DNA of 64,000 nucleotides, taken from a virus. Of the stretch, positions 13,859 to 55,654 are shown one piece after another. Where the stretch lies: IMG/VR virus record IMGVR_UViG_3300031419_000529, positions 27,173 to 91,172 of that record; one strand, 5' to 3'. The position numbers were made by a program, and so were the translations under genes. The notes under the pieces were generated by a model. That model searched no databases. It was given only the letters and a program-made list of their open reading frames with translations, and had not been told where the DNA came from. How positions within the stretch are numbered: the first letter of the stretch is position 1; each line of letters begins with the position of its first letter.

Positions 13859-15457
13859 TTAAACGTTGGCAGAGATGTGGCGAATGCGACCGGCGATGAT
13901 TGCAGGAATAAGCTGGTTCAACGCTGCCGCGCTGATCTTGATGCCTTCGGCGGCCAGATCGGCTTTAACATCATTGATGATCTCCGTGATGCCCATACCT
14001 GCTGGCTTTAATTCTTCAGTGGCCACCGCCGGAGCGCCGCCCAAAGTTTCGGGATACTTGAACGCTGCAGCCGAGTGAAGCGGGGCATTAGCAACAGGCT
14101 CAGGATCTTCAATTGGTGCAGCCTTTGCCGGCAGTAATGCGGCGGCTGCCTGTCGTTCCCGCTCAATACGTTCGTCATCAAGTTTCTTCTGGTTGCTGAT
14201 CCGCTGTTCAATCAGCAGCTTCAGATGCTCGCTGTCGTTCCCAATGAGTTGGTTGATATCGGCAAATAACGGTTTAAACGCCGGTTCAATCACGTCGAAC
14301 AGTTTCAGATTCGCCTGGTACTTATCGCAGATCTGGTTGGCTTCGATTTTTGCGCGTGCCAATTCGTCGTTTGCGGCCCCCTGTAGTGATGTCAGGGTTT
14401 TCTTTCCCTTGATGGCGCTGACAAAGTCCGCAGGGATAATCGGCAGGTGGACGGCACCGAGCTGGACATTTAAAGCACTAATATGTTCATTCAGCGCTGT
14501 CTTGGCCTTGCTGATGATTTCAGCGCGGAGCTCATCTTTACGTGACTTCACCAGCTTTGTGAGTTCCAAGCGTTTGGCGCGCATCGCTTCGCGCAAGGTG
14601 TCGATTGTGCGGAATAGCTCATCAATCTCAACTGTCTGCGACAACGCCTGCTGTTTGATGAGGTCGAGTTCGGACTCAGCCTTGTCGCAGAACTTCACTG
14701 TTTCCTCCGCGTCGGCGAAGTCCTGATCTGTCACGAGGCTAGTATTGATAGATTCAATGAAGGCCAGAGCTTTCCCTTGGTAAACGGTGAGGTTTGACTG
14801 TTTTACTGCGCCTTCAATCTCCACCATCAGTGCTGGCAGTCGCATGATCGATTTGCCCTGCGGTGGTTCTTTCAGCGTACCAGGCTCGTAACCGTCCAGA
14901 TCCTGCTTGAACTGCTGCCAGCCGGCTATCAGTGCATCCGCGCGCCCCGGCACTGGGGTGTACTCCATGGAAGCAAAGTTTTCCTCGGTACCGTCGGAAC
15001 AAACGAAAATTACGCGCTCCGCACCGCTTACCAGCAACTGCTGCTCCAATTGCCAGTAATATTCTGGTGGTAACTCCTGCTGCCGCACGGATTCCGCCAG
15101 GCCGGTATTCCACATTTTATGTTCGAACAGCGTGTCTTCCATCATGGTCATGCCGTCGAAGGAGGCCAACAAACACCCCATGTCATCAATAGCTGTTGCC
15201 GGATAAAGTTCGTCGCCGATCATGCTCTCGACGATGACACGCGCGGTTGCCTCTTGCTGGTGGCCTTTATCGAAAAGGTTGGTTTGCACCCAGTCGCTGA
15301 TCTCCCGTTCGGTACCGGTGGCTTTCATGCTCAGCAGTTCGTCGCGGCGCATTTTGCTGGACGCGGCCATCATTACTGGTGCTTCGCTGGCGGTGAAGTG
15401 TTTGGCACGCAGCGCGTGCCATTCAGCAGAACCCTGCTGTACGTTAATGATTTGCAT
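13859..15457 (-). CDS. YqaJ/lambda-exonuclease family protein
   Basis: QGSAEWHALR..TASEAP, LASFDG, FEHK, YYWQLEQQLLV; adjacent to bet. Confidence 0.92.
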   Translation of the reverse strand: MQIINVQQGSAEWHALRAKHFTASEAPVMMAASSKMRRDELLSMKATGTEREISDWVQTNLFDKGHQQEATARVIVESMIGDELYPATAIDDMGCLLASFDGMTMMEDTLFEHKMWNTGLAESVRQQELPPEYYWQLEQQLLVSGAERVIFVCSDGTEENFASMEYTPVPGRADALIAGWQQFKQDLDGYEPGTLKEPPQGKSIMRLPALMVEIEGAVKQSNLTVYQGKALAFIESINTSLVTDQDFADAEETVKFCDKAESELDLIKQQALSQTVEIDELFRTIDTLREAMRAKRLELTKLVKSRKDELRAEIISKAKTALNEHISALNVQLGAVHLPIIPADFVSAIKGKKTLTSLQGAANDELARAKIEANQICDKYQANLKLFDVIEPAFKPLFADINQLIGNDSEHLKLLIEQRISNQKKLDDERIERERQAAAALLPAKAAPIEDPEPVANAPLHSAAAFKYPETLGGAPAVATEELKPAGMGITEIINDVKADLAAEGIKISAAALNQLIPAIIAGRIRHISANV

Positions 15458-16283
15458 CGATAGGCTCCAATTTACGGATAGCTTCGGTTTGAGCTTCTGA
15501 AAGGATGAATTTGGTGCTGACGGTCGCGATCACGGCATCGGCTTTTTTACTGCCGGATTCGATCATCCTTTGCCAGCCAGGGAGGTTTTGATTGAATTTG
15601 TCAGCTGGGTAATGTGGCAACGTCAACGGCGTTTGGGTTTCTTTGTGGGGCGTCACATCCTTGGCGTCGCTGATATCCAAGGATTTACCTTCCATTTCTT
15701 CAGCCGTAGGCTGCTGGCCGATTTCGGGCCATGCTTTGCGTAGTGCCTGCGCTTCGGCGCATTTCGCTAGCTGGCCATAAGGGCGTTTCTTCCACATAGC
15801 GTTCGGCGCGGAGCTATCACGGCCAGCAGTCGCGTAATTCTCCATCCAGTATTCTTTGGCGCTGAATTCGACGATCTTGCCGTCGGGCATACTCTTGCAA
15901 ACGGTGTACTTGCACCAGGCGGGAAAGGTGATTTCAACGCCATTTAGCGTTTTTGTAATGTCGTCACCAAATTCAGGCTCATTTGCACCCGCATAGCTCC
16001 CTGAGCGATCGGCCTGAATGCGATAAAGGCCGATGCCGGGCATCACTACGTCGCGCCATTCGTTTTTGCCTGATTGGGCATCTTTAACGCTCATCGGTAC
16101 CAAGTGAACCGGCTTCATCAGCGGATCCAACTGACGAGCGATGCAATAGCTGACAGCCATGACAACAGAGTCATCCCGCGCGCCGGGATAAATGGAGTTT
16201 TTCAGCGCGTTCCAGGTAGGCTCATCGATCCCCATGGCCGCGACAGATTGTGGCAAAGTGCCTGTTGTTACCATGTTGCTCAT
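15444..16283 (-). CDS. bet: Phage recombination protein Bet (Red-beta)
   Basis: LDPLMKPVHLVP, GIGLYRIQADRSG, MWKKRPYGQLAKCAEAQALRKAWP. Confidence 0.94.
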   Translation of the reverse strand: MSNMVTTGTLPQSVAAMGIDEPTWNALKNSIYPGARDDSVVMAVSYCIARQLDPLMKPVHLVPMSVKDAQSGKNEWRDVVMPGIGLYRIQADRSGSYAGANEPEFGDDITKTLNGVEITFPAWCKYTVCKSMPDGKIVEFSAKEYWMENYATAGRDSSAPNAMWKKRPYGQLAKCAEAQALRKAWPEIGQQPTAEEMEGKSLDISDAKDVTPHKETQTPLTLPHYPADKFNQNLPGWQRMIESGSKKADAVIATVSTKFILSEAQTEAIRKLEPIDANH

Positions 16284-16438
16284 TGGTCAGCCCTCACGGA
16301 GTTACGGATAGATAAGCGGAAAACGCTGAGAACGACGGCGCAGGCTTTCAACGGATGGCGGCGGTGCTTGAATTGGTGAATATTGTGGCTGCCGATCCGG
16401 TGTTGGTACTGGATCTGTTGGATAGGGTTATGGCTCAT
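16280..16438 (-). CDS. Small 52-aa protein coupled to bet (not in ORF track)
   Basis: GGAG SD; MSHNPIQQIQYQHRIGSHNIHQFKHRRHPLKACAVVLSVFRLSIRNSVRADQ; stop overlaps bet ATG (ATGA). Confidence 0.55.
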   Translation of the reverse strand: MSHNPIQQIQYQHRIGSHNIHQFKHRRHPLKACAVVLSVFRLSIRNSVRADQ

Positions 16439-16446
16439 GGTATTCT
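16418..16446 (+). promoter_or_regulatory. Sigma70 promoter for the antisense sRNA
   Basis: TTGGAT-17 bp-TATTCT with extended TGn. Confidence 0.7.
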
Positions 16447-16452
16447 CCGTGT

Positions 16453-16565
16453 TGATCGGGGGTGGTTCCCCGGTCAGCTAGCTGGTGGCCTTTGGTCATT
16501 GGCCAGTCCTTATGATTTGCGGTTTGGTCGCCGCATTTCGGGATAGCCCCGCTTGCGGGGCTTTT
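16453..16565 (+). ncRNA. Candidate multi-target antisense sRNA (three UGGU-loop hairpins plus terminator)
   Basis: Hairpins 16453-16476 (loop UGGU, two G.U pairs valid only on +), 16486-16505 (UUUGGUCAUU), 16518-16535 (UUUGGUCG); terminator AGCCCCG-CUUG-CGGGGCU-UUU. Confidence 0.7.
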
Positions 16566-16578
16566 CTCGTTTATGGGG

Positions 16579-18486: not shown

Positions 18487-18750
18487 TCAAAAGACCCCAT
18501 GGGGTACGCGGCTGCAACCGCGCATTTTCTGGCGGCCGGCGGCGCTGATTTGCCCTGGTGCAAGAAGTTCGCTCTCAACCGTGCGGCGTTTGCGTGGCTT
18601 CGGTGGTGCTGGCATATCCGGCATCGTTTTACAGCGGGTGATCACCAACGTTGTTTTTTCGATACGGTCGCTGCTGCGTTGGATACGCTCTTGAAGTTCA
18701 CGAGCGCGGCGGAGTGTTGCTGATTTTGCTTTTGCTGTAATCATGGTCAT
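18487..18750 (-). CDS. N: Lambda N-like antitermination protein
   Basis: Arg-rich N-term (SATLRRARE); C-term GRQKMRGCSRVP resembles lambda N GRQKIKGKSIP; boxA upstream in pL leader. Confidence 0.7.
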   Translation of the reverse strand: MTMITAKAKSATLRRARELQERIQRSSDRIEKTTLVITRCKTMPDMPAPPKPRKRRTVESELLAPGQISAAGRQKMRGCSRVPHGVF

Positions 18751-18887
18751 TGGTCAGTCCTCGGGTGGTACTTTGTGTCGTGAGCATTTTGGTTATTAAT
18801 GCTTTTTGAATGATTAGGTTACCTGCTTTTTTCCACATCAGGCGAGGTGGTATCTTGGTGTTTCCACACAACCAAGAAGGCAAAACA

Positions 18888-20328: not shown

Positions 20329-21003
20329 CTATATTGGTTTTATATGACAGATTACAGTTCCAATTATACGACAGTTACTATCAAATTTAACAAACCTCAT
20401 TTCTTGAGGGTAGTCAGGGTTTGTTGCCTTTAGATACCCAATGTTGTCTATTAATTGAAATTGCTTAAGTCCAACATTATTAGATGTATTAAATGCTGAT
20501 ATAATATACTGCCCGTTCATTGGAGTGCGAAGTGCTTCATCAACAAAGACTGTGTCGCCCATCTCAAATCGCGGAAGCATGGAATCATCATTAATCTCTA
20601 TCGAAAAAGTATTGTTGCTGCAAGGGACTGGGCAAGGAATATGTTTATCACTTCCTGAGGAAGAAACGGTAGCGCTTTTCGAGTTAACAATAGTTTGCCA
20701 AGTTACATAGGGGACAAGTCGAAGGTCTACCTTGTCACTGAGGGGGGAAGAGCTAATGGCCTTTTCCTCGATAGAACCAACATTGTTTACCAACCACTCC
20801 GCAGAGCACTTGAGCACTTGAATTACTGCCAATAGCACTTTGTCCTTCATGCTTTCTTGGCTGCCATTTTCGATGTTGCTGATCGTTACGCGCGTGAGTT
20901 TCCGCTCGCCTTGCAGCAAGCGATTTATCTCTTTTACGGCCTCCTCTTGAGTCAGACCAAGCTGCTCACGGCGCCATCTAAAACGTTCACCGAGTGTTTT
21001 CAT
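20329..21003 (-). CDS. cI: CI-like repressor (HTH plus S24 domain), lacking the Ala-Gly cleavage site
   Basis: LGLTQEE..TISNIENG HTH; DDSM and GLKQ catalytic motifs; VPYVTWQTIV where VPxxxWVQAG is expected. Confidence 0.92.
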   Translation of the reverse strand: MKTLGERFRWRREQLGLTQEEAVKEINRLLQGERKLTRVTISNIENGSQESMKDKVLLAVIQVLKCSAEWLVNNVGSIEEKAISSSPLSDKVDLRLVPYVTWQTIVNSKSATVSSSGSDKHIPCPVPCSNNTFSIEINDDSMLPRFEMGDTVFVDEALRTPMNGQYIISAFNTSNNVGLKQFQLIDNIGYLKATNPDYPQEMRFVKFDSNCRIIGTVICHIKPI

Positions 21004-21338: not shown

Positions 21339-21358
21339 CAACGCATAAGGACTGACCA

Positions 21359-21721
21359 ATGACCACAATTTACCAGCCAGGCAATGGAACGGCAGGGGCC
21401 GCGATAGCCTCCGGCGTTCGCCGTGAGCTGCTGTCACGCAAGAAGGTAGGCAAAAACGGCCTACCATTCGCTGCTGTACGCGAAGACCAGATCAAAACGC
21501 GATGGACTGAGAGCGAGGCAGTGACGATCAAAAGTGCTGCCGATGCCATGGCGTCCAACCCCGCAGTTGAAACCAACGTCGCCGCGATCCGGGGCTTTCT
21601 GGCTATGTTCGCTGAAGCCCCTGAGATGTTGGTTCACGTCCACAACGAACTGAAGGCCGCCGGCCTGTCTGTTCCTGAATGGCTGCCACCACTTCCATCA
21701 ACAAAGGAGCTGCCACTATGA
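21359..21721 (+). CDS. cII-position regulator, possibly ribbon-helix-helix
   Basis: Position after cro; IKTRWTESEAVTIKSAADAM RHH-like. Confidence 0.6.
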   Translation: MTTIYQPGNGTAGAAIASGVRRELLSRKKVGKNGLPFAAVREDQIKTRWTESEAVTIKSAADAMASNPAVETNVAAIRGFLAMFAEAPEMLVHVHNELKAAGLSVPEWLPPLPSTKELPL

Positions 21722-22952: not shown

Positions 22953-23442
22953 CCCGGAACAGCTGAACTACGCCATCAGGGCGGCACCGGGACGCAAGTT
23001 TTATCCGTTCCCTGCGCCACCGGACTGGCTGTCCATGGCGAAAGAGCTGATCGACGCCAGACTGCCGACAGTGGATAGCGTGATGGAGGAGTTTGACCGT
23101 TACAGCGCAAGACGGGGCTATTTCGACAGCCCTGAAGAGTTCAGATGGAAAGCGCCGATCTTGTACTGGATTGTCACCGATATGCGCAAGGCTATGCAGC
23201 AGTACAACCATGGCGTTGCTGAGCTGCGAAAAGTGGCAGAGCGGCTGCTCCGTCAGTGGGAAAAGAAACTACAGGATGGGGAGCAAATCCCGGAACCAGC
23301 AATCAGGCTGGGTTACACGGAAACGCCGATAGGTGTTGGAAAAGAACGGGGATTGACCACCCCCGAAACAGAGAAAAAAGGCGCGGCGCTTCTTCAGGCA
23401 ATTCGGCTGAAGGTGGCCCTAGCAAAAACAAGTAAGGACTGA
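22687..23442 (+). CDS. Lambda P-like helicase loader
   Basis: MQRIASS..PQYE, PFPAPPDW, LPTVDSVMEEF, ILYWIVTDMR resemble the P family; GAGG SD. Confidence 0.8.
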   Translation: MRDRNGPKPVTAAAMQRIASSRASPQYEPYRKNTATAAEQKTIQGIVLTVILPMYPIHWPTWVSRMNTTVLMEAFGTELTRVLLQDAINPEQLNYAIRAAPGRKFYPFPAPPDWLSMAKELIDARLPTVDSVMEEFDRYSARRGYFDSPEEFRWKAPILYWIVTDMRKAMQQYNHGVAELRKVAERLLRQWEKKLQDGEQIPEPAIRLGYTETPIGVGKERGLTTPETEKKGAALLQAIRLKVALAKTSKD

Positions 23443-23445
23443 CCA

Positions 23446-24588
23446 ATGACCATTTGTATCAAAAACGCACTGATTTACCGCTTGTCCCGAGGTGTGGATC
23501 TGAGCGGGATGGAAGAGCAACTGGCTGCATTTGCGTTCACGCCATGCGGTAGCCAGGACATGGCAAAAACCGGATGGGTGGCACCAATTGGCGATGCGCT
23601 CGTGCACACCGCCAACGGCCAGCATCTGCTGGTGGTACAGCGCGAAGAGAAACTGCTCCCGCGTGAAGTTATTCAAACCGAGCTGAACGAGAAAGTCGCC
23701 AAACTTGAAGCCGAACAGCATCGGAAACTGAAAAAATCAGAGAAAGACGCTCTCAAAGACGAAGTGCTGCATAGCCTGCTGCCGCGTGCTTTCAGCAAAC
23801 ACCATAAAACACAGATCTGGATTAACGAAGGGGCCGGGTTAATCGTCGTTGACGCCGCCAGTGCCAAACGCGCCGAAGATGCGCTGGCGTTACTGCGCAA
23901 AAGCTTGGGTTCCCTCCCAGTGGTGCCGTTGGCCATGGAAAGCCCGATCGAGCTGACCGTGACCGAATGGGTACGCTCTGGCCAGCCGCCAGCGGGCTTT
24001 ACTCTGCAAGATGAGGCCGAGTTGAAAGCGGTTTTGGAAGAGGGCGGGATCATCCGTTGCAAGAAGCAGGATCTGGTCGGTGATGAAATCGCGTCAAACC
24101 TGCAGGCGGGTAAGTTGGTCACGAAGTTGGCGCTGAGTTGGCAGGATCGAATTGATTTCGTGCTGAGCGATGACGGCACGCTGAAGAAACTGAAATTTAG
24201 CGATGTGCTGCTGGAGCAGAACGACGATATTGATCGGGAGGATTACGCCCAACGCTTTGACGCGGACTTTATTCTGCTGACCGGCGAGCTGGCGGCGTTG
24301 ATTGCCAACCTGGTTGCAGCGCTCGGCGGGGAAGCGAGCCATTCTGCCAATAGCAGCGGTTCAACGGCTAATGAGGATGACGATTCGCTGAATGATGAAC
24401 GTTATCCTGAAGCTGTCCAGTTTGTTCTGGCCAAGGGCAGCGCTTCGATTTCAGGCCTGCAGCGTCAATTCCGCATTGGCTATAACCGCGCTGCGCGGCT
24501 GATAGAGCAGATGGAGGCTGGTGGCGTGCTGTCGGAGCCCGGTGTCGATGGCACACGGACAGTGCTGAGTACAGGGGCCGAGCAATGA
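23446..24588 (+). CDS. rdgC: RdgC fused to an FtsK gamma domain
   Basis: [34 protein letters not shown]; C-term [25 protein letters not shown]. Confidence 0.93.
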
Positions 24589-26295: not shown

Positions 26296-27318
26296 ATGCT
26301 TGATGTTCTTTCCTCAGGAAAAATCACTATTGATCTTCAGTTAATCGCTATCATTGTTGGAGTGGTAGTCACGCTGGCTGCATTTTATTTTCGTAAGGGA
26401 CTATCAAAGGTTGAATTATTTGTTTCGAGTAATGAAGTTACCTCTGAGGTTGACGTAAAATCACTTCAAAGAAAGCTCGATGAATTGGTAACCATTGTTG
26501 AAGGGGCGAAGGACGATGGCATCGTAGGGTTATCTGAAAGTGTCCAAAAGCTTAGGGCAAGAGTGTCAGAGCTTGAATTGCCAGGTCTTGATGTTAATTA
26601 TAAAGAAAGAATCGAAGGTGATATTCAGTCTATAGTTGATTCTCTCTTGGAAAATAATCTTGAAAATAATGATGAAATAAACAACAAAATAACCAATGTT
26701 ATCGATGGAATGATAAGTGAGAAGGTGGCTCTCAATGTTGCCGAAAAGGATAAGATTGCACTTGAAAAAGACAAAAACTTGATCTCTTTGATGCTTAATT
26801 CTAAAGATGATTTCGATTCGTTATTACGGCGCGAGTATGATTACTCATTGAGGTATAAAGGTGTTGTTTTGAATTTATTTATAATAATAAATATTGGGTT
26901 GTTGTTTATTGCGTTATTATATACTCTTTCGATTGCTTTATCCACTTCAGTGATAAATAACGGATTCCCAAGGGAACTGGCGCTGACCATTTCAGGTCTA
27001 TATATTGGATTTGCGTCCTTTGTTATATATGTAATAAAATTTTCAAATGCAAGAATTCTTACGATAATTGCATTGAGGGAGGATATGTCAAAAGAGAATG
27101 TTCTATCTCATTATGTAGATGCCTTTTCAAACAAACCAGAATTGAATGAAAATGATGTAGCAGTAATGAGAGTGTTAACAGTAAATCGCGCACAAAGAGA
27201 ACAGAAAACAAATCACCCATATGAAGTAATACTCCAGGGTATTAGTGGCTCAAATATCCAGTTTAAAGGCGGAAGACTGCAAGTGGGCAAAGATAACAAC
27301 AAGAGTGATCGGGATTAA
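26296..27318 (+). CDS. AT-rich membrane protein (N-term TM, coiled coil, 2 TM)
   Basis: Low-GC insertion between DUF1367 and DUF1364. Confidence 0.75.
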   Translation: MLDVLSSGKITIDLQLIAIIVGVVVTLAAFYFRKGLSKVELFVSSNEVTSEVDVKSLQRKLDELVTIVEGAKDDGIVGLSESVQKLRARVSELELPGLDVNYKERIEGDIQSIVDSLLENNLENNDEINNKITNVIDGMISEKVALNVAEKDKIALEKDKNLISLMLNSKDDFDSLLRREYDYSLRYKGVVLNLFIIINIGLLFIALLYTLSIALSTSVINNGFPRELALTISGLYIGFASFVIYVIKFSNARILTIIALREDMSKENVLSHYVDAFSNKPELNENDVAVMRVLTVNRAQREQKTNHPYEVILQGISGSNIQFKGGRLQVGKDNNKSDRD

Positions 27319-27653: not shown

Positions 27654-28925
27654 GTGACTTCGTACACAGACGATTTTGTTAAGAAAAATATTGATGAGTG
27701 TGACTCGTTTATTCAAATAAAATATAAAGAGTCTGTATTTAATATACAAGGAGATAATGAACTAAACGATAGGGAATTTATTTCCAGCCTAAGTTATGAT
27801 GAGGTTTTTCAAGTGGCTCTTTATTGCGCCTGGTTGGATTTTTTCTCTAAGTTTAGAAATGACGCAGTTCTCCTTGACAAAAACACAATTTTTAACAGAA
27901 AGAAACTAGGCGATAGAGTTTTATTTTCCGCAGATCAAGTAAAGGATGATCCTGTCTTATTCTTGTCAAACTTATTAAGGGTAATAATAGAAGCTAATTT
28001 TTGGGAGGGCTCACCTGGTCTTTTTTATAATAGACGTGATGTTTTGACGATCTTAGCAAGTAATTACGAGAGAAGGGAGTATCAATTCGAATGGATAAGA
28101 GATACTTTGCAGATTTCATTAGCACAGTTCTTACTACATTCCGATGCTTTTAAAATGGCATTGCAACTTGGTTCCAATATAACTGAGCAGTCTAATACTA
28201 TAAAGAATGAGTTAAATAAAGATGTGGGAATACTAATTGGAACTCTAACTTCAGAAAGTGAAAGTATAAAGAAAGATTTCGATACAAAAAAAGAAGAGAT
28301 TTCAGAGTTATTAAACGATAAAGAGAAAGAGTTACGCAATATTTTTGAAGAGATAGACTCTAATGTTAAAGGGATAGATGAGGTTAGAGAAAGATTAAGT
28401 AGTTACCATTCTGAATTTAACTTTGTAGGTCTTTATGCTGGGTTCAAAGAATTAAAGAAAGGTAAAGATGAAGAGCTAGACTCGGCAAAAGGCAGTTATC
28501 ATCTCGCCATGATTATTGCAATAATGTTACCGTTGTTAAGTATAGGGATGCATATATTATTCCCTGGGCTGGTGAATGGAAAAACTTTAGTTGAATGGGT
28601 GTCGTGGGCAGCTCCGTTCGCTGCAATAGAACTTCTTATACTATATTATGCAAGGGTAATTTATTCAGAAGTTAAGTCGTTGAGAACGCAACTTGTACAA
28701 ATAAATTTAAGAGGGGCGTTATGCCAATTCATAGAAGAATATATGAATTATAGAAAGAAAATGAAAAATGAAAAAGGTGAGCTGAATGATGCAGCGTTGG
28801 ATAAATTTGATTCATTAATCTTCAGTACAATACAAATGGATAGCGATAACATTCCTGGGGCTCTGGATGGAGTTAATGCTATTGCTGAGTTGGCGGGAAA
28901 AGTTTTAGCAAAAAGTAAGCCTTAG
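27654..28925 (+). CDS. AT-rich coiled-coil plus 2 TM protein
   Basis: AGGAG SD with GTG start; FNFVGLYAGF, two TM helices, ALCQFIEEY. Confidence 0.78.
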   Translation: MTSYTDDFVKKNIDECDSFIQIKYKESVFNIQGDNELNDREFISSLSYDEVFQVALYCAWLDFFSKFRNDAVLLDKNTIFNRKKLGDRVLFSADQVKDDPVLFLSNLLRVIIEANFWEGSPGLFYNRRDVLTILASNYERREYQFEWIRDTLQISLAQFLLHSDAFKMALQLGSNITEQSNTIKNELNKDVGILIGTLTSESESIKKDFDTKKEEISELLNDKEKELRNIFEEIDSNVKGIDEVRERLSSYHSEFNFVGLYAGFKELKKGKDEELDSAKGSYHLAMIIAIMLPLLSIGMHILFPGLVNGKTLVEWVSWAAPFAAIELLILYYARVIYSEVKSLRTQLVQINLRGALCQFIEEYMNYRKKMKNEKGELNDAALDKFDSLIFSTIQMDSDNIPGALDGVNAIAELAGKVLAKSKP

Positions 28926-28993
28926 ATATAATGAAAATTATGTAGTTTAGATTGTTATTTAATTTATGATAATTTTGATTAACAGGGGGTATA

Positions 28994-30529
28994 ATGAAAA
29001 ATATAGTGGAAATGTCTTTTGAATGGCAGAACGAGAGTAATGGATTTCCAGCGGATAATCTGGATCGGGCCAAATATGCTAGATTCTTAACGGATTTCTT
29101 GGTTGCTAAAGGCAGTGAAAAAAATTATGTTTTGAATGTAAATGCTTCATGGGGCGCTGGGAAAACATGGTTTTTGAGACGTTGGTCTGAAGAGATTAAA
29201 AAGAATTATCCTGTGGTATTTGTTGATGCATGGAAAAGTGACCATTCAAAAGATCCTTTTTTGTCTGTTGTATCTGCAATTTCTAAAGATCTAGAGCCAT
29301 TAATAGATGTGAGATTTAAAGATAGCGCAATAACGAAAAAAAGCTGGCTATTATTAAAAAGTATAGCCCCCGAAATTACAAAAGGAATTGTGAAAAAATA
29401 TTTGAGCTTAGATATTGATGAGGTATCAAAAGCAATTAATAATAATGATGCATCCTCCATTGCTGGTGTGGGCGCCAAAGCAGTTGAGAAATTAATTAAG
29501 TTTCATGATGAAACTAATAGTTCCATTGATGACTTCAAAGAAGCTACATCAAAATATTTGGATTTAATTGTCAATAAATCAGATAAAGAGTTACCTCTGT
29601 TTGTTTTCATAGATGAATTAGACAGGTGCAGGCCAACTTATGCAATAGAAATGCTTGAAACAATAAAGCATATATTTGATATGGAGAACGTGGTTTTTGT
29701 TATTGCTACTGATAAAGATCAGCTGCAACACTCAATAAAAGCTGTATATGGAAGTGGATTTAACTCAACAAAATATTTGGATCGTTTTTTTGATAGATCA
29801 GTTACTTTGAGAAAAACCTCGCTCTTTGACTACATAAGTAACATGATTTCAAATAGTAATATTTTAACCGATTATTTTAGCAGGTCAGATTGTAGTTGGA
29901 TGATACCAGTTAATAATTTGGATCAAATTTCTGATAGGGTTGAATGGCTTTCAGCAATGTCACAATGTTTTTATATGGATTTAAGAACGACAAAACAATG
30001 GATTGAGCGATTGGAAGCATCAATATTATCCTCGGGTGATCGTATTGATTTTATATTTCTTTCATATTTACTGGCATTAAATAGTGTTAATGGAATCACA
30101 TATGCAAATGTTGCTAACACAACATCAATTATGGGGGCTGACTTCAAAGGTAAATACATTTCTGAATTGTATCGTGACATTGTAAATCCAGATGTTAAAC
30201 TGAATTTTTCTTTTGATTGCTCTGTTTTAGGTGATAAATTAAACATTAAAAACTCAAGTTCATACACCAGAAACCCATTTAAAATCGTAAATTTTTCGTT
30301 AGGTGTTCATGAGTTGTTTTTCAGTCTCCACTGTTGTGTGAATACAATCGACCCACAGAGGGTAATTGATGAGCAATGCTTTTCTTTATCTCAACGCTTA
30401 ATGGAAGGTGGTCAAGATACAAGGATGATTGATATAGGATTGATGCAAGCTGTCATAATGAGGAATAATAATGGGGTGAGTTTCCATGATTATATAGATA
30501 TAGTAGAGCTAGCAATGATATTAGAATGA
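28994..30529 (+). CDS. KAP-family P-loop NTPase
   Basis: NASWGAGKT Walker A; FIDELDRCRPTYAIEMLETIKHIF; YLDRFFD. Confidence 0.92.
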   Translation: MKNIVEMSFEWQNESNGFPADNLDRAKYARFLTDFLVAKGSEKNYVLNVNASWGAGKTWFLRRWSEEIKKNYPVVFVDAWKSDHSKDPFLSVVSAISKDLEPLIDVRFKDSAITKKSWLLLKSIAPEITKGIVKKYLSLDIDEVSKAINNNDASSIAGVGAKAVEKLIKFHDETNSSIDDFKEATSKYLDLIVNKSDKELPLFVFIDELDRCRPTYAIEMLETIKHIFDMENVVFVIATDKDQLQHSIKAVYGSGFNSTKYLDRFFDRSVTLRKTSLFDYISNMISNSNILTDYFSRSDCSWMIPVNNLDQISDRVEWLSAMSQCFYMDLRTTKQWIERLEASILSSGDRIDFIFLSYLLALNSVNGITYANVANTTSIMGADFKGKYISELYRDIVNPDVKLNFSFDCSVLGDKLNIKNSSSYTRNPFKIVNFSLGVHELFFSLHCCVNTIDPQRVIDEQCFSLSQRLMEGGQDTRMIDIGLMQAVIMRNNNGVSFHDYIDIVELAMILE

Positions 30530-30552
30530 GAAACATTAATAAGGACTGACCA

Positions 30553-31365
30553 ATGACCAACGTAATAGAACAACTTATAAAAATGCACGATCCGCGCTGT
30601 GTAAGCGCGGAGTCAATGAATGTAGGCCGCGGGCGAGCTTCCCTGACCAGGGAGCAAATTCTCGGAGCATTCGCAGCCGCGCAGCACCAGCACTCAGTTG
30701 GCCTCGACCTGCTGATGACTAAGTACCGCAGCGACTTCAAGGCGGAGCAGCGGCTACGTGCAGCGATCAATGAATGGGTACATCAACGCCCGCATCCCGA
30801 ACGCGCGGCTGCTGCATGTCAGTTAGCCCTGAGTATTGTGCTTGAGCGTAACCTGCCGGCACAGATATCACACCTCGCGTCATTATTACGCAGGTATGGC
30901 CCACGTACTGCTCAAACCCGAAAGAACATTGAGGCGCTGCAGTCAGAGATTAAGGCTTTAGACAAGCGCCGATGCCAGGTGCAAATCAGCGATACTGTTT
31001 ACGTTGAGGCTGGATTAGAAATTACCGATTTGAATACACGGATTGAGCGGGAACGTGCAGCATTGCGCGCCTGGTCTGAACGCCACGCAGCCACAACCAA
31101 TATTTGCCCACGATGCTCAGGCACTGGCCGTACTGTTAGACCGCACCCGGTAGAGTGCGAAGAGTGTGGTGGTAAAGGTAAGATACCCGCCAATATGGAA
31201 CACTTGCGTAACTCTATGCGTATCATAGGGGCCGAGGTAGCTCCCGGGAAGTGGGTTACTGAATATATCTCATTGGTTGGAGCTTGTATCAACTGGCTGT
31301 ATTGTAAAGAGGAGCAAGCAGGTAAGTGCATAAAAAACAGGATTATAAGCGAATTATACGACTGA
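30553..31365 (+). CDS. Q: Q-like late antiterminator (TIGR02642-type zinc finger)
   Basis: LIKMHDPRCVS N-term; CPRCSGTG..CEECGGKG; just upstream of lysis. Confidence 0.75.
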   Translation: MTNVIEQLIKMHDPRCVSAESMNVGRGRASLTREQILGAFAAAQHQHSVGLDLLMTKYRSDFKAEQRLRAAINEWVHQRPHPERAAAACQLALSIVLERNLPAQISHLASLLRRYGPRTAQTRKNIEALQSEIKALDKRRCQVQISDTVYVEAGLEITDLNTRIERERAALRAWSERHAATTNICPRCSGTGRTVRPHPVECEECGGKGKIPANMEHLRNSMRIIGAEVAPGKWVTEYISLVGACINWLYCKEEQAGKCIKNRIISELYD

Positions 31366-31431: not shown

Positions 31432-31926
31432 ATGAGCAATCCTGCACTAGCGTTAATAAATTGGATCGAGGGATTCCCTTTGGAAACCCAGGACGAAATT
31501 ACTTTTTTGGTATGCGCATCTCACCCCAGTTTCAGCGCCGATATTGACAACATCTTTAAGTCTAAAGAGTATTCGTCAAAAATCCTTGAACTTTTAAAGG
31601 GTTCCACTAGTGGTGATTTTAAAGATATTGGAGTAATTGTCTCATTTCGTGCGCTGTTCGATTATTTTTTCTTGGCAAAACGCGGAACTAAAGAAGGATG
31701 GGATGAGACGGTTAAGCTATTTGACAGCGTAATCAATGACCCATCTGAGAAACCTGCTGGTGTTGTTGAGCAAGCTAAAGAAATGAAAGATAAGGTGCCA
31801 GAAAGAATGGCGCAATGGATTGCGATATGTGATTCATGGAAGCAACTTAAACTAACATCGCTCTCAGATGATGAAATTGAACAGTGGCATAACGCTCAAG
31901 CTTTCTCGACCTATAAGCCTGTTTGA
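31432..31926 (+). CDS. Hypothetical accessory protein between Q and lysis
   Basis: 164 aa, AGGGG SD, lower GC. Confidence 0.75.
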   Translation: MSNPALALINWIEGFPLETQDEITFLVCASHPSFSADIDNIFKSKEYSSKILELLKGSTSGDFKDIGVIVSFRALFDYFFLAKRGTKEGWDETVKLFDSVINDPSEKPAGVVEQAKEMKDKVPERMAQWIAICDSWKQLKLTSLSDDEIEQWHNAQAFSTYKPV

Positions 31927-31952: not shown

Positions 31953-32025
31953 TTGCTTATAGTTCTATAACGCGCTAAATTTCCGAAAGATGCCGGAGTA
32001 TGCTTAAAGCTACTTCGGCTTTTTT
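31953..32025 (+). promoter_or_regulatory. Late promoter/pause/terminator unit 1
   Basis: TTGCTT-17(..CGCGC)-TAAATT, AAAGAT, hairpin GCCGGAGTA/TACTTCGGC plus T6. Confidence 0.8.
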
Positions 32026-32038
32026 ATTGGTCAGTCCT

Positions 32039-32071
32039 AAGCCTGCATGGTTCGCCCAGCAGGCTTTTTTT
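32039..32071 (+). terminator. Second terminator in late leader
   Basis: AAGCCTGC..GCAGGCTT plus T tract. Confidence 0.8.
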
Positions 32072-32097
32072 ATTCCCCCAAGCAGGGGAGGTGGAGT

Positions 32098-32340
32098 ATG
32101 AAAATGCAGGAGAAAGCAAGCCTCGCGGCCTACCTCTCTTCAGGGTTTCTTGTGCTGGTGGGGAAGGTGGGGAAATTACTTAACGATCTCACTCTGAACG
32201 ATTGGGCGATCGTCATCGGTATCATCATCGGTATCGCGACGTTTGCCGCAAACCTGTACTTCCAGAATCGCCAGACACGAGCTATTGAACGCGCCTCACG
32301 CGCCGGCGCCACAATCATTAACCCGGGGCGTGCCAAATGA
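32098..32340 (+). CDS. Holin with Met-Lys-Met dual start
   Basis: GGAG SD; ATGAAAATG; LTLNDWAIVIGIIIGIATFAANLYFQ. Confidence 0.85.
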   Translation: MKMQEKASLAAYLSSGFLVLVGKVGKLLNDLTLNDWAIVIGIIIGIATFAANLYFQNRQTRAIERASRAGATIINPGRAK

Positions 32341-39403: not shown

Positions 39404-39474
39404 TTGCACCAACGCTTTTGATGCGCTAGATTCCGGAAAGATATCAAGCCTCGCCCTAAAAAGCGGGGCTTTTT
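39404..39474 (+). promoter_or_regulatory. Late promoter/pause/terminator unit 2
   Basis: TTGCAC-17(..TGCGC)-TAGATT, AAAGAT, hairpin AAGCCTCGC/GCGGGGCTT plus T tract. Confidence 0.8.
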
Positions 39475-39652
39475 CATTTCCCTCGGTCAAGGTCAGTGTT
39501 GTTGTGTTTTTCTTTGAGTATTTGCCCGCCTCGTGCGGGCATTTTTGTTTGTGCCGCTAAGCACTTTGGCAACAGAGCGCTTATTCGCACGGGCAGCGAT
39601 ACGCCTTTCCATTTCGGATCTATCCGACAAATAGACATGCAGGAGTAGGGAC

Positions 39653-47533: not shown

Positions 47534-47607
47534 TTGCTTTGTGCGACGATGCGCGCTAAATTCCCCAAAGATGCCGACTTATGCCTAACCGCTGAGTCGG
47601 CTTTTTT
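47534..47607 (+). promoter_or_regulatory. Late promoter/pause/terminator unit 3
   Basis: TTGCTT-17(..GCGCGC)-TAAATT, AAAGAT, hairpin GCCGACTTA/TGAGTCGGC plus T6. Confidence 0.8.
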
Positions 47608-47630
47608 ATTCCCTCAATTTGTGACCCCAT

Positions 47631-55558: not shown

Positions 55559-55632
55559 TTAACAAAGTGTTTTTATTGCGCTAGATTACCCAATGATGCC
55601 AAGCCTCGCTCTAACCAGCGGGGCTTTTTTTA
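55559..55632 (+). promoter_or_regulatory. Late promoter/pause/terminator unit 4
   Basis: TTAACA-17(..TGCGC)-TAGATT, AATGAT, hairpin AAGCCTCGCT/AGCGGGGCTT plus T tract. Confidence 0.75.
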
Positions 55633-55654
55633 TGCCTAAATTCTGGAGCCTCAA

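Follow-up and report, generated by a model that had tools for sequence, protein, structure and literature searches.

A complement of an early-gene translation-start tag between two late-leader terminators of a provirus, and its possible role as the seed of a regulatory RNA

The stretch of DNA analysed here, hereafter the window, is a 64-kb part of a 91-kb provirus record (IMG/VR record IMGVR_UViG_3300031419_000529, positions 27,173 to 91,172) and belongs to a Serratia lambdoid prophage. Its late leader (31953-32098, plus strand) carries, between two terminators, a sequence of 13 nucleotides (nt) that is the exact reverse complement of a tag found at the translation starts of five early and regulatory genes in the same window. 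Why should the complement of a gene-start signal be kept in a place where it starts no gene? On balance we lean, by a modest degree, towards the view that this 13-mer is the base-pairing part, or seed, of a late-leader regulatory RNA of the same kind as StxS and the 6S RNA of lambda, which would repress the translation of early genes.

The tag and its complement in the late leader

The leader 13-mer, ATTGGTCAGTCCT at 32026-32038, lies directly behind the T6 tract of the first terminator, t1, and ahead of the second terminator, t2, just where the original prediction had placed a perfect 13-nt complement. Read on the minus strand it gives the tag AGGACTGACCAAT followed by AAAAAA, with no ATG and no open reading frame (ORF), which bears out the further statement that this copy is not the start of a gene. 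At five ORFs, with starts at 16283 (minus), 18750 (minus), 21359 (plus), 23446 (plus) and 30553 (plus), the tag is made up of the Shine-Dalgarno (SD) sequence AGGA, 7 nt of spacer and the first two letters of the ATG. These five tags and the genes to which they belong, with protein lengths in amino acids (aa), are as follows:

16282-16294, minus strand: tag variant AGGGCTGACCAAT (A4G, still able to form a G.U pair with the seed) at the gene of a RecT-like annealing protein (15444-16283; phrog_2449, 6e-125)
18749-18761, minus strand: tag at the gene of an 87-aa basic protein of unassigned function in the leftward operon (18487-18750)
21348-21360, plus strand: tag at the gene of a 120-aa protein of unassigned function (21359-21721), just to the right of the gene in the cro position
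23435-23447, plus strand: tag at a gene (23446-24588) whose product has RdgC-type (phrog_724, 'exonuclease recombination-associated') and FtsK-like C-terminal matches
30542-30554, plus strand: tag AGGACTGACCAAT(G), forming the SD, spacer and start of the Q-like gene (30553-31365, 270 aa; phrog_127, Q-like, 4e-9)

The 120-aa gene at 21359-21721 is also close to the gene of a cI-like repressor (20329-21003). The original prediction had counted N among the targets as well; for the 87-aa protein, such an identity finds no support in a family match.

Seven matches to the tag with at most two mismatches occur in the window, five of them perfect; shuffled sequences gave a mean of 1.25 and none of 100 shuffles reached seven. 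We calculate that 64 kb of DNA should contain a perfect 13-mer, on either strand, about 0.002 times. All six sense copies stand at -11 to +2 of an ATG, and five of the six are gene starts. The sixth (16498-16510, minus strand) precedes merely a 23-codon frame, the ATG of which is absent in relatives (AATAAC); it is the complement of the seed of a structured plus-strand RNA described below, not a gene start. The tagged genes share with the leader only the 13-mer and none of the flanking gene-start sequence. When perfect copies were counted in four whole related host genomes of 4.5-5.3 Mb each, all 21 lay inside a homologous prophage and a reversed control pattern had none; a chance origin of the tag and its complement is therefore excluded. 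In the same four genomes no perfect target was found in the host outside the prophage, perfect sites being the only ones counted. Mimicry of 16S rRNA by the leader was considered and rejected, since the tag shares with Serratia 16S rRNA only the anti-SD sequence UCCUUA and no 7-mer or longer.

The tag is a property of a whole group of related prophages. By their Q genes, the nearest relatives of the window are from Serratia (84-97% identity) and the remoter ones from Yersinia, Pectobacterium, Brenneria and Symbiopectobacterium, and each of nine related proviruses holds 6-10 copies of the tag. A survey that covered the window together with 46 viral and 10 genome loci yielded 113 distinct contexts with the tag directly against a start codon and 18 without one there; bar one stray, these 18 fall into two conserved non-coding places, namely the late leader and an intergenic RNA site in the leftward operon. 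The tag always has the orientation of its gene and a constant position relative to the start codon (-11 to +2), and the information content of the family contexts drops sharply at its 5' edge. At the start of Q, the tag core is kept in nearly all of the 56 relatives compared, and this core, GGACTGACCAA, survives insertions and deletions that change its distance to the ATG (AATG, AATATG, AAATG, AAAATG). Since the spacing to the ATG shifts while the core stays, the tag is more than SD geometry. A plain SD with a spacer would need no such core, and it appears that something reads the sequence of the tag. The tag and anti-tag system as a whole is shared by one family of prophages, with members in Serratia, Yersinia, Pectobacterium and Brenneria.

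The late leader in which the complement lies, together with the first gene behind it, is composed of the following elements, with lengths of paired or spacer DNA in base pairs (bp):

31953-31981, plus strand: pR'-like late promoter by sequence reading, with -35 TTGCTT (31953-58), a 17-bp spacer with a GCGC end and -10 TAAATT (31976-81)
31986-31991, plus strand: AAAGAT, similar to a -10 and located in the initially transcribed region; a candidate sigma70-dependent pause or Q-loading site, kept in four cassettes of the window and in relatives
31992-32025, plus strand: terminator t1, a 12-bp hairpin (31992-32019, -15.4 kcal/mol) followed by U6 (T6 tract 32020-32025), with compensatory changes in relatives
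32026-32038, plus strand: the seed AUUGGUCAGUCCU (DNA ATTGGTCAGTCCT), directed against translation initiation regions, in the unpaired linker between t1 and t2; pairwise diversity (pi) 0.021 in 21 distinct type-A leaders
32039-32071, plus strand: terminator t2, a hairpin (32039-32066, -15.8 kcal/mol) with a conserved loop, followed by U7 (T7 32065-71), from its fold and from relatives
32098-32340, plus strand: holin gene, first of the late genes after the leader (phrog_20, 1.2e-15)

The leader thus has a late promoter of the Q-dependent type at its 5' side, lysis genes at its 3' side and the Q-like gene upstream. The -10 TAAATT and the AAAGAT element are separated by tccg. Lambda carries AACGAT as a sigma70 pause element at the equivalent position, and we take the layout of this leader to match that of lambda pR', with its -10 TAAATT and its sigma70 pause element. 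In an alignment of 34 distinct leaders from relatives (A1), the -10 of the late promoter is nearly invariant, with a spacer that is free to vary. Both t1 and t2 are GC-rich hairpins with a U tract behind each of them on the transcribed strand. In the same 34 leaders, 96% of the cells of these two hairpins are paired, five pairs show changes on both sides, a number that none of 500 shuffles reached, and many G.U pairs fit the plus strand only. The reading of the leader as a pair of tandem terminators is true, yet it leaves the conserved linker between them unexplained. An antiterminator fold, in which the seed would pair with t1 or t2, was rejected because the minimum free energy structure gives only a weak contact of 2 bp or 4 bp. 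The holin gene is preceded by a ribosome-binding site (RBS), and an endolysin and an Rz-like spanin come after it. Its 5' end (32098-32106, plus strand) reads ATG-AAA-ATG, the Met-Lys-Met dual start by which lambda S gives holin and antiholin.

Conservation of the seed, paralogous leaders and a second RNA

The seed varies very little among relatives. In 21 distinct leaders of type A, which is the simple, unduplicated form and is found in Serratia, Pectobacterium, Brenneria and Symbiopectobacterium, 18 seeds are perfect, two carry T13A and one carries C7T, which keeps a G.U pair with the targets. The pi of the seed is 0.021, close to the 0.016 of the -10 hexamer. By comparison, the t1 arms reach 0.12-0.15, the t1 loop 0.33, and the promoter spacer and the stretch downstream of t2 0.5-0.6. 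The Q proteins of these phages are only 53-87% identical. Lack of conservation in relatives had been named as part of a possible refutation when the 13-mer was first noticed; the 13-mer is in fact kept in four genera, as tightly as the -10 hexamer, and the refutation fails on this point. The leader stands 50-90 nt past the stop codon of Q in most relatives; other insertions split Q from the leader in several genomes and the seed is still kept.

The word formed by the U tract and the seed was found in 16 of 2.9 million viral contigs, and all 16 come from this prophage family. A search of 50,697 phage records found no DNA similar to the leader, and no isolated phage in that set carries the system. 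Isolated phages were also rejected as relatives, since their Q-like proteins are only 26-30% identical (Pasteurella and Aeromonas phages) with no DNA match.

In Yersinia the leaders are rearranged to ATTGGTCAGT-tcc-GGTCAGTCCT-GAC, in which two overlapping anti-tag 10-mers are kept, and a third hairpin displays GGUCAGUC in its 12-nt loop. A more divergent Yersinia group displays UUGGUCAUU in an 11-nt loop. The latter is the complement of AAUGACCAA, which takes in the start codon plus the MT(N) codons that the tagged genes have in common, and the tags of this group are likewise more degenerate. In the group of loci L219, L220 and L237, both seed and tags are more degenerate, which may simply reflect greater overall divergence.

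The cassette of promoter, pause element and terminator is present four times in the window, at 31972, 39423, 47553 and 55578 on the plus strand. The spans of the four pR'-like cassettes are 31953-32075, 39404-39545, 47534-47620 and 55559-55640 (plus), and their consensus consists of TTG..., a 17-bp spacer with a GCGC end, TA(A/G)ATT, 4 nt, AA(A/T)GAT and one or more terminators. This points to a division of the late genes into four units under Q control, where lambda has a single one; in relatives, two or three late cassettes lie inside 10 kb after Q. One of the further cassettes of the window bears on the question of the seed:

39423-39545, plus strand: second late promoter and leader cassette, with two terminators and the linker core GGTCAGT, the complement of ACTGACC, found in 7/7 Serratia-type copies

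Among the relatives, second leaders of this Serratia type are present at L187, L188, L191, L193, L204 and L233. The GGTCAGT core (39470-39500 in the window) is kept in all seven Serratia-type second leaders with flanks that vary, and it may be a weaker second seed. The second leader of the Pectobacterium/Brenneria type, which is located about 7-9 kb after Q (L209, L215, L217, L221, L232, L234 and L240), matches leader 1 almost letter for letter in promoter, pause element and t1 and departs from it in having an unrelated linker and a different t2. The shared 5' half of leaders 1 and 2 suggests copying or gene conversion of this half of the cassette within a genome. Since this seed-less paralogous leader keeps the promoter, the pause element and t1, the seed is dispensable for promoter function, for termination and for the action of Q. 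In phages of the Pectobacterium/Brenneria type, the seed therefore seems to belong specifically to the leader ahead of the lysis genes.

The sixth sense copy of the tag, mentioned above, corresponds to an anti-tag in another RNA:

16447-16572 (about), plus strand: second anti-tag RNA, antisense to the leftward operon, with a consensus fold that shows covariation

Its candidate promoter is TTGGAT-17-(TGg)TATTCT, with an extended -10 (16418-16446, plus strand). The RNA has three hairpins, the anti-tag ATTGGCCAGTCCT (16498-16510) and an intrinsic terminator (16545-16562) with a U tract. A consensus fold over nine relatives contains 42 pairs, 19 of them with changes on both sides, and UUGGUC is kept in two hairpin loops, the anti-tag being conserved too. 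No Rfam family matches this RNA at gathering scores and none is credible at E up to 10; for the leader, Rfam likewise gave no match at threshold (best match E 0.6, none credible at E up to 10), and neither of the two RNAs has an Rfam match to the C4-type antisense RNA family. Because this second structured RNA carries the same anti-tag, the tag has the appearance of an address shared by the members of a small RNA regulon of the phage. So well-supported a second anti-tag RNA also raises the prior probability that the leader copy works likewise.

The seed appears to be available for pairing. In an 86-nt leader RNA that starts near the predicted transcription start, the calculated probability that all 13 nt of the seed are unpaired is 0.30, and opening them costs 0.7 kcal/mol. 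The predicted duplex with the tag has 15 bp, namely 13 Watson-Crick pairs, a G.U pair at the G of AUG and an A-U pair at +4, with a free energy of about -25 kcal/mol. It covers the SD and the start codon of all five tagged genes, and opening of the targets costs 2-7 kcal/mol.

A proposed role for the seed and its alternatives

In the mechanism that we propose, transcription would start at the pR'-like promoter of the first Q-dependent late operon. Most polymerases would end at t1 and produce an RNA of about 39 nt that lacks the seed, and those that pass t1 and end at t2 would produce an RNA of about 85 nt. Trimming of the longer RNA, of the kind that RNase E performs on StxS, could leave a species of about 50 nt made up of the seed and a terminator, with t2 as its 3' module. 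Once Q acts, the seed sequence would become part of the 5' leader of the late mRNA. In the seed-bearing forms, the unpaired AUUGGUCAGUCCU would pair with the tag AGGACUGACCAAU(GA) on five early mRNAs, which are those of the Q-like, RdgC-like and RecT-like genes and of the two genes of unassigned function adjoining the immunity region. Such pairing would block 30S binding, leading to coordinated repression of early and regulatory genes. Promoters of the pR' type are constitutive in lambda and Stx phages, so that some seed-bearing RNA, from the fraction of polymerases past t1, could exist in lysogens. There it would damp the leaky expression of early genes and possibly also that of incoming relatives that bear the tag; after Q has acted, it would shut off the early genes. 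We infer from the sequence that the leader RNA exists, is processed, may use a chaperone, represses its targets and acts at these times. The feedback on Q and the requirement for read-through of t1, both of which had been put forward in the original prediction, are plausible on similar grounds.

The view of the leader as a regulatory RNA, which formed the core of that prediction, finds partial support, from the pR'-like anatomy, the unpaired seed, the 15-bp duplex over the SD and AUG, the conservation of the 13-mer in relatives and the existence of a paralogous leader without the seed. What did not emerge is compensatory covariation between seed and target, of which none was found in the divergent Yersinia-type loci and the 56 Q starts. 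This result weighs against the proposal, and so do several others. The tag variants G7A, C10A and T13A occur in genomes whose seeds show no matching change, and no matching target accompanies the seed variant C7U (L204). Substitutions in the tag comprise 20 that preserve a pair and 25 that break one, a count that favours neither side, given transition bias. In addition, the whole leader is conserved from the -10 to the U tract of t2 (t2 pi 0.03, its loop 0.00), and the seed could hitch-hike in a cassette that is constrained, or was recently exchanged, as a unit. The t1 terminator looks strong, so seed-bearing short RNA may be scarce. Finally, L229 has tagged genes and lacks a seed-bearing leader; this locus may be rearranged.

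These points bear in part on the idea that the inverted tag is a conserved passenger, an old accident such as the remnant of a rearrangement at a tagged start, which has been kept together with the promoter-pause-t1-t2 block and has no activity in trans. High conservation of the whole leader, including the t2 loop, the missing covariation between seed and target, and the copying of leader cassettes between positions within genomes, as seen in the identical pR' and t1 of leaders 1 and 2, would all agree with such a history. We nevertheless consider it unlikely. The unpaired linker, which has no role in a hairpin, varies as little as the -10, while the loop and arms of t1 do vary, and the paralogous leader swaps precisely the seed segment. 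Rearranged Yersinia leaders hold anti-tag stretches in a loop instead of letting them decay, an independent non-coding copy of the anti-tag sits in a covarying RNA, and it is only the 13-mer, with none of the flanking gene-start sequence, that the leader has in common with the tagged genes. A different kind of accident is supposed if the tag is a recombination linker, that is, a boundary that promotes the exchange of modules in mosaic phages, with the leader copy as another junction. The sequence 5' of the tag is indeed unrelated between relatives, with the break exactly at the tag edge, and variable gene blocks adjoin the tagged genes. However, homologous exchange would have very little to work with in 13 nt, the orientation of the leader copy is opposite to that of the rightward genes, so that exchange would invert or delete essential DNA, and neither the covarying anti-tag RNA nor the display in loops would be explained. 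We give this idea very little credence.

A tag so invariant at unrelated genes needs a sequence-specific reader, which raises the question of whether a protein could bind the 13-mer, either as RNA at gene starts in the manner of RegA or as double-stranded DNA, with the leader copy serving as a roadblock or a decoy. A DNA-binding reader would have the merit of being indifferent to orientation. Against a protein, the fixed position at -11 to +2 and the orientation that follows the gene favour a role at the level of RNA, and a protein that binds the tag as RNA would not bind its complement. The two copies away from gene starts are part of structured non-coding RNAs whose G.U pairs are specific to the plus strand, and no candidate protein was identified. 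Recognition by a protein is in our view improbable. It is slightly less probable still that the 13-mer is a cis element of the early right transcript, in which case t1 and t2 would end the Q message, the seed in its 3' untranslated region would fold onto the Q start or be released, and the pR' transcript would be irrelevant. The short distance from the Q stop codon to the leader in most relatives and the presence of the tag at the Q start in nearly all of them speak for such an arrangement, but insertions part Q from the leader in several genomes with no loss of the seed, and four more tagged genes are on other transcripts or far upstream. The distance from the seed to the Q start is 1.5 kb in the window and about 0.9 kb in relatives. 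This arrangement is better seen as one form of the favoured explanation than as a separate rival.

The late-leader regulatory RNA that we favour could also be one part of a larger system. It is possible, at somewhat less than an even chance, that the prophage family as a whole has an RNA regulon in which a 13-nt tag at early starts, including that of Q, is read both by a stand-alone RNA and by the late-leader RNA. Such a regulon would be the counterpart of T4 RegA in early shut-off and could provide cross-immunity against tagged heteroimmune relatives. If these proposals are true, the leader RNA of a lambdoid late promoter gains a role in the developmental programme of the phage itself, and a shared RBS tag would serve as a translational switch for many genes, one of which is the antiterminator that controls the leader. 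Prophages would also have a new way, at the level of RNA, to silence related incoming phages. The system is compact and is present in several enterobacterial genera.

Neighbouring genes and known systems

Between the Q-like gene and the late promoter lies an ORF of 164 aa (31432-31926, plus strand) with a GC content of 0.41, compared with 0.52 for its neighbours. It has no match in Pfam or PHROG and no homologue in the viral contigs, and was rejected as a handle for finding relatives because it is an insertion specific to this phage. Relatives have other, unrelated insertions or none at this spot, which looks like a hot spot for accessory genes. A candidate defence pair lies just upstream of Q (27654-30529, plus strand): two AT-rich genes (GC 0.33-0.34), one for a protein of 423 aa (phrog_9373), the other for a KAP-family P-loop NTPase of 511 aa (PF07693, 9e-43).

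The leader RNA of the lambdoid late promoter has long been regarded as a by-product of antitermination. StxS, the pR' leader RNA of an Stx phage, is bound by Hfq, and RNase E shortens it to a 3' fragment of 74 nt; it represses stx1B by pairing at the RBS (PMC7547250). The 6S RNA of lambda is associated with Hfq, present in both the lysogenic and the lytic state, and processed, and its role is unknown (bioRxiv 10.1101/2024.10.31.621285). Both are short RNAs that arise from a constitutive Q-dependent late promoter and end at the leader terminator, as would be the case for the leader described here. In contrast to both, to which it has no sequence or Rfam similarity, this leader has two terminators with the seed between them. 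It also differs from StxS in its predicted targets, which are five early and regulatory genes of the phage itself that have one built-in tag, the antiterminator gene among them. Other antisense RNAs of lambdoid phages, such as aQ (paQ) and OOP of lambda, lower Q or cII at the RNA level (PMC12197685). These are encoded in cis and are fully complementary to a single gene, whereas a seed that acts in trans on a shared tag is proposed here.

In T4, RegA is a single repressor that shuts off many early genes via related sequences at their translation starts; the reader there is a protein, whereas the candidate reader here is an RNA. The CI RNA of P4, an immunity antisense RNA, follows a logic like that proposed here, with short seeds, displayed in loops, against repeated sites around an RBS in the phage's own mRNAs. 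In P1 and P7, the c4 RNA, also an immunity antisense RNA, displays short stretches in its loops that pair with repeated sites around the RBS in the phage's own mRNAs (PMC12197685). The present system is similar to c4 and P4 CI in that short seeds match repeated sites of its own, with five tagged starts in the window and 113 contexts in the family. However, c4 and P4 CI each act on one operon (that of the antirepressor or the early operon of P4) and are processed from that same transcript, whereas the targets here are spread across the two early operons and one of the seeds is part of the late leader. A literature search for the 13-mer itself found no paper. A shared tag in at least five early translation starts, two anti-tag RNAs, and the location of one of these between the tandem terminators of a late leader look new. 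Taken together, these comparisons suggest that the leader resembles StxS and lambda 6S RNA in its origin, and P1 c4 and P4 CI RNA in its logic.
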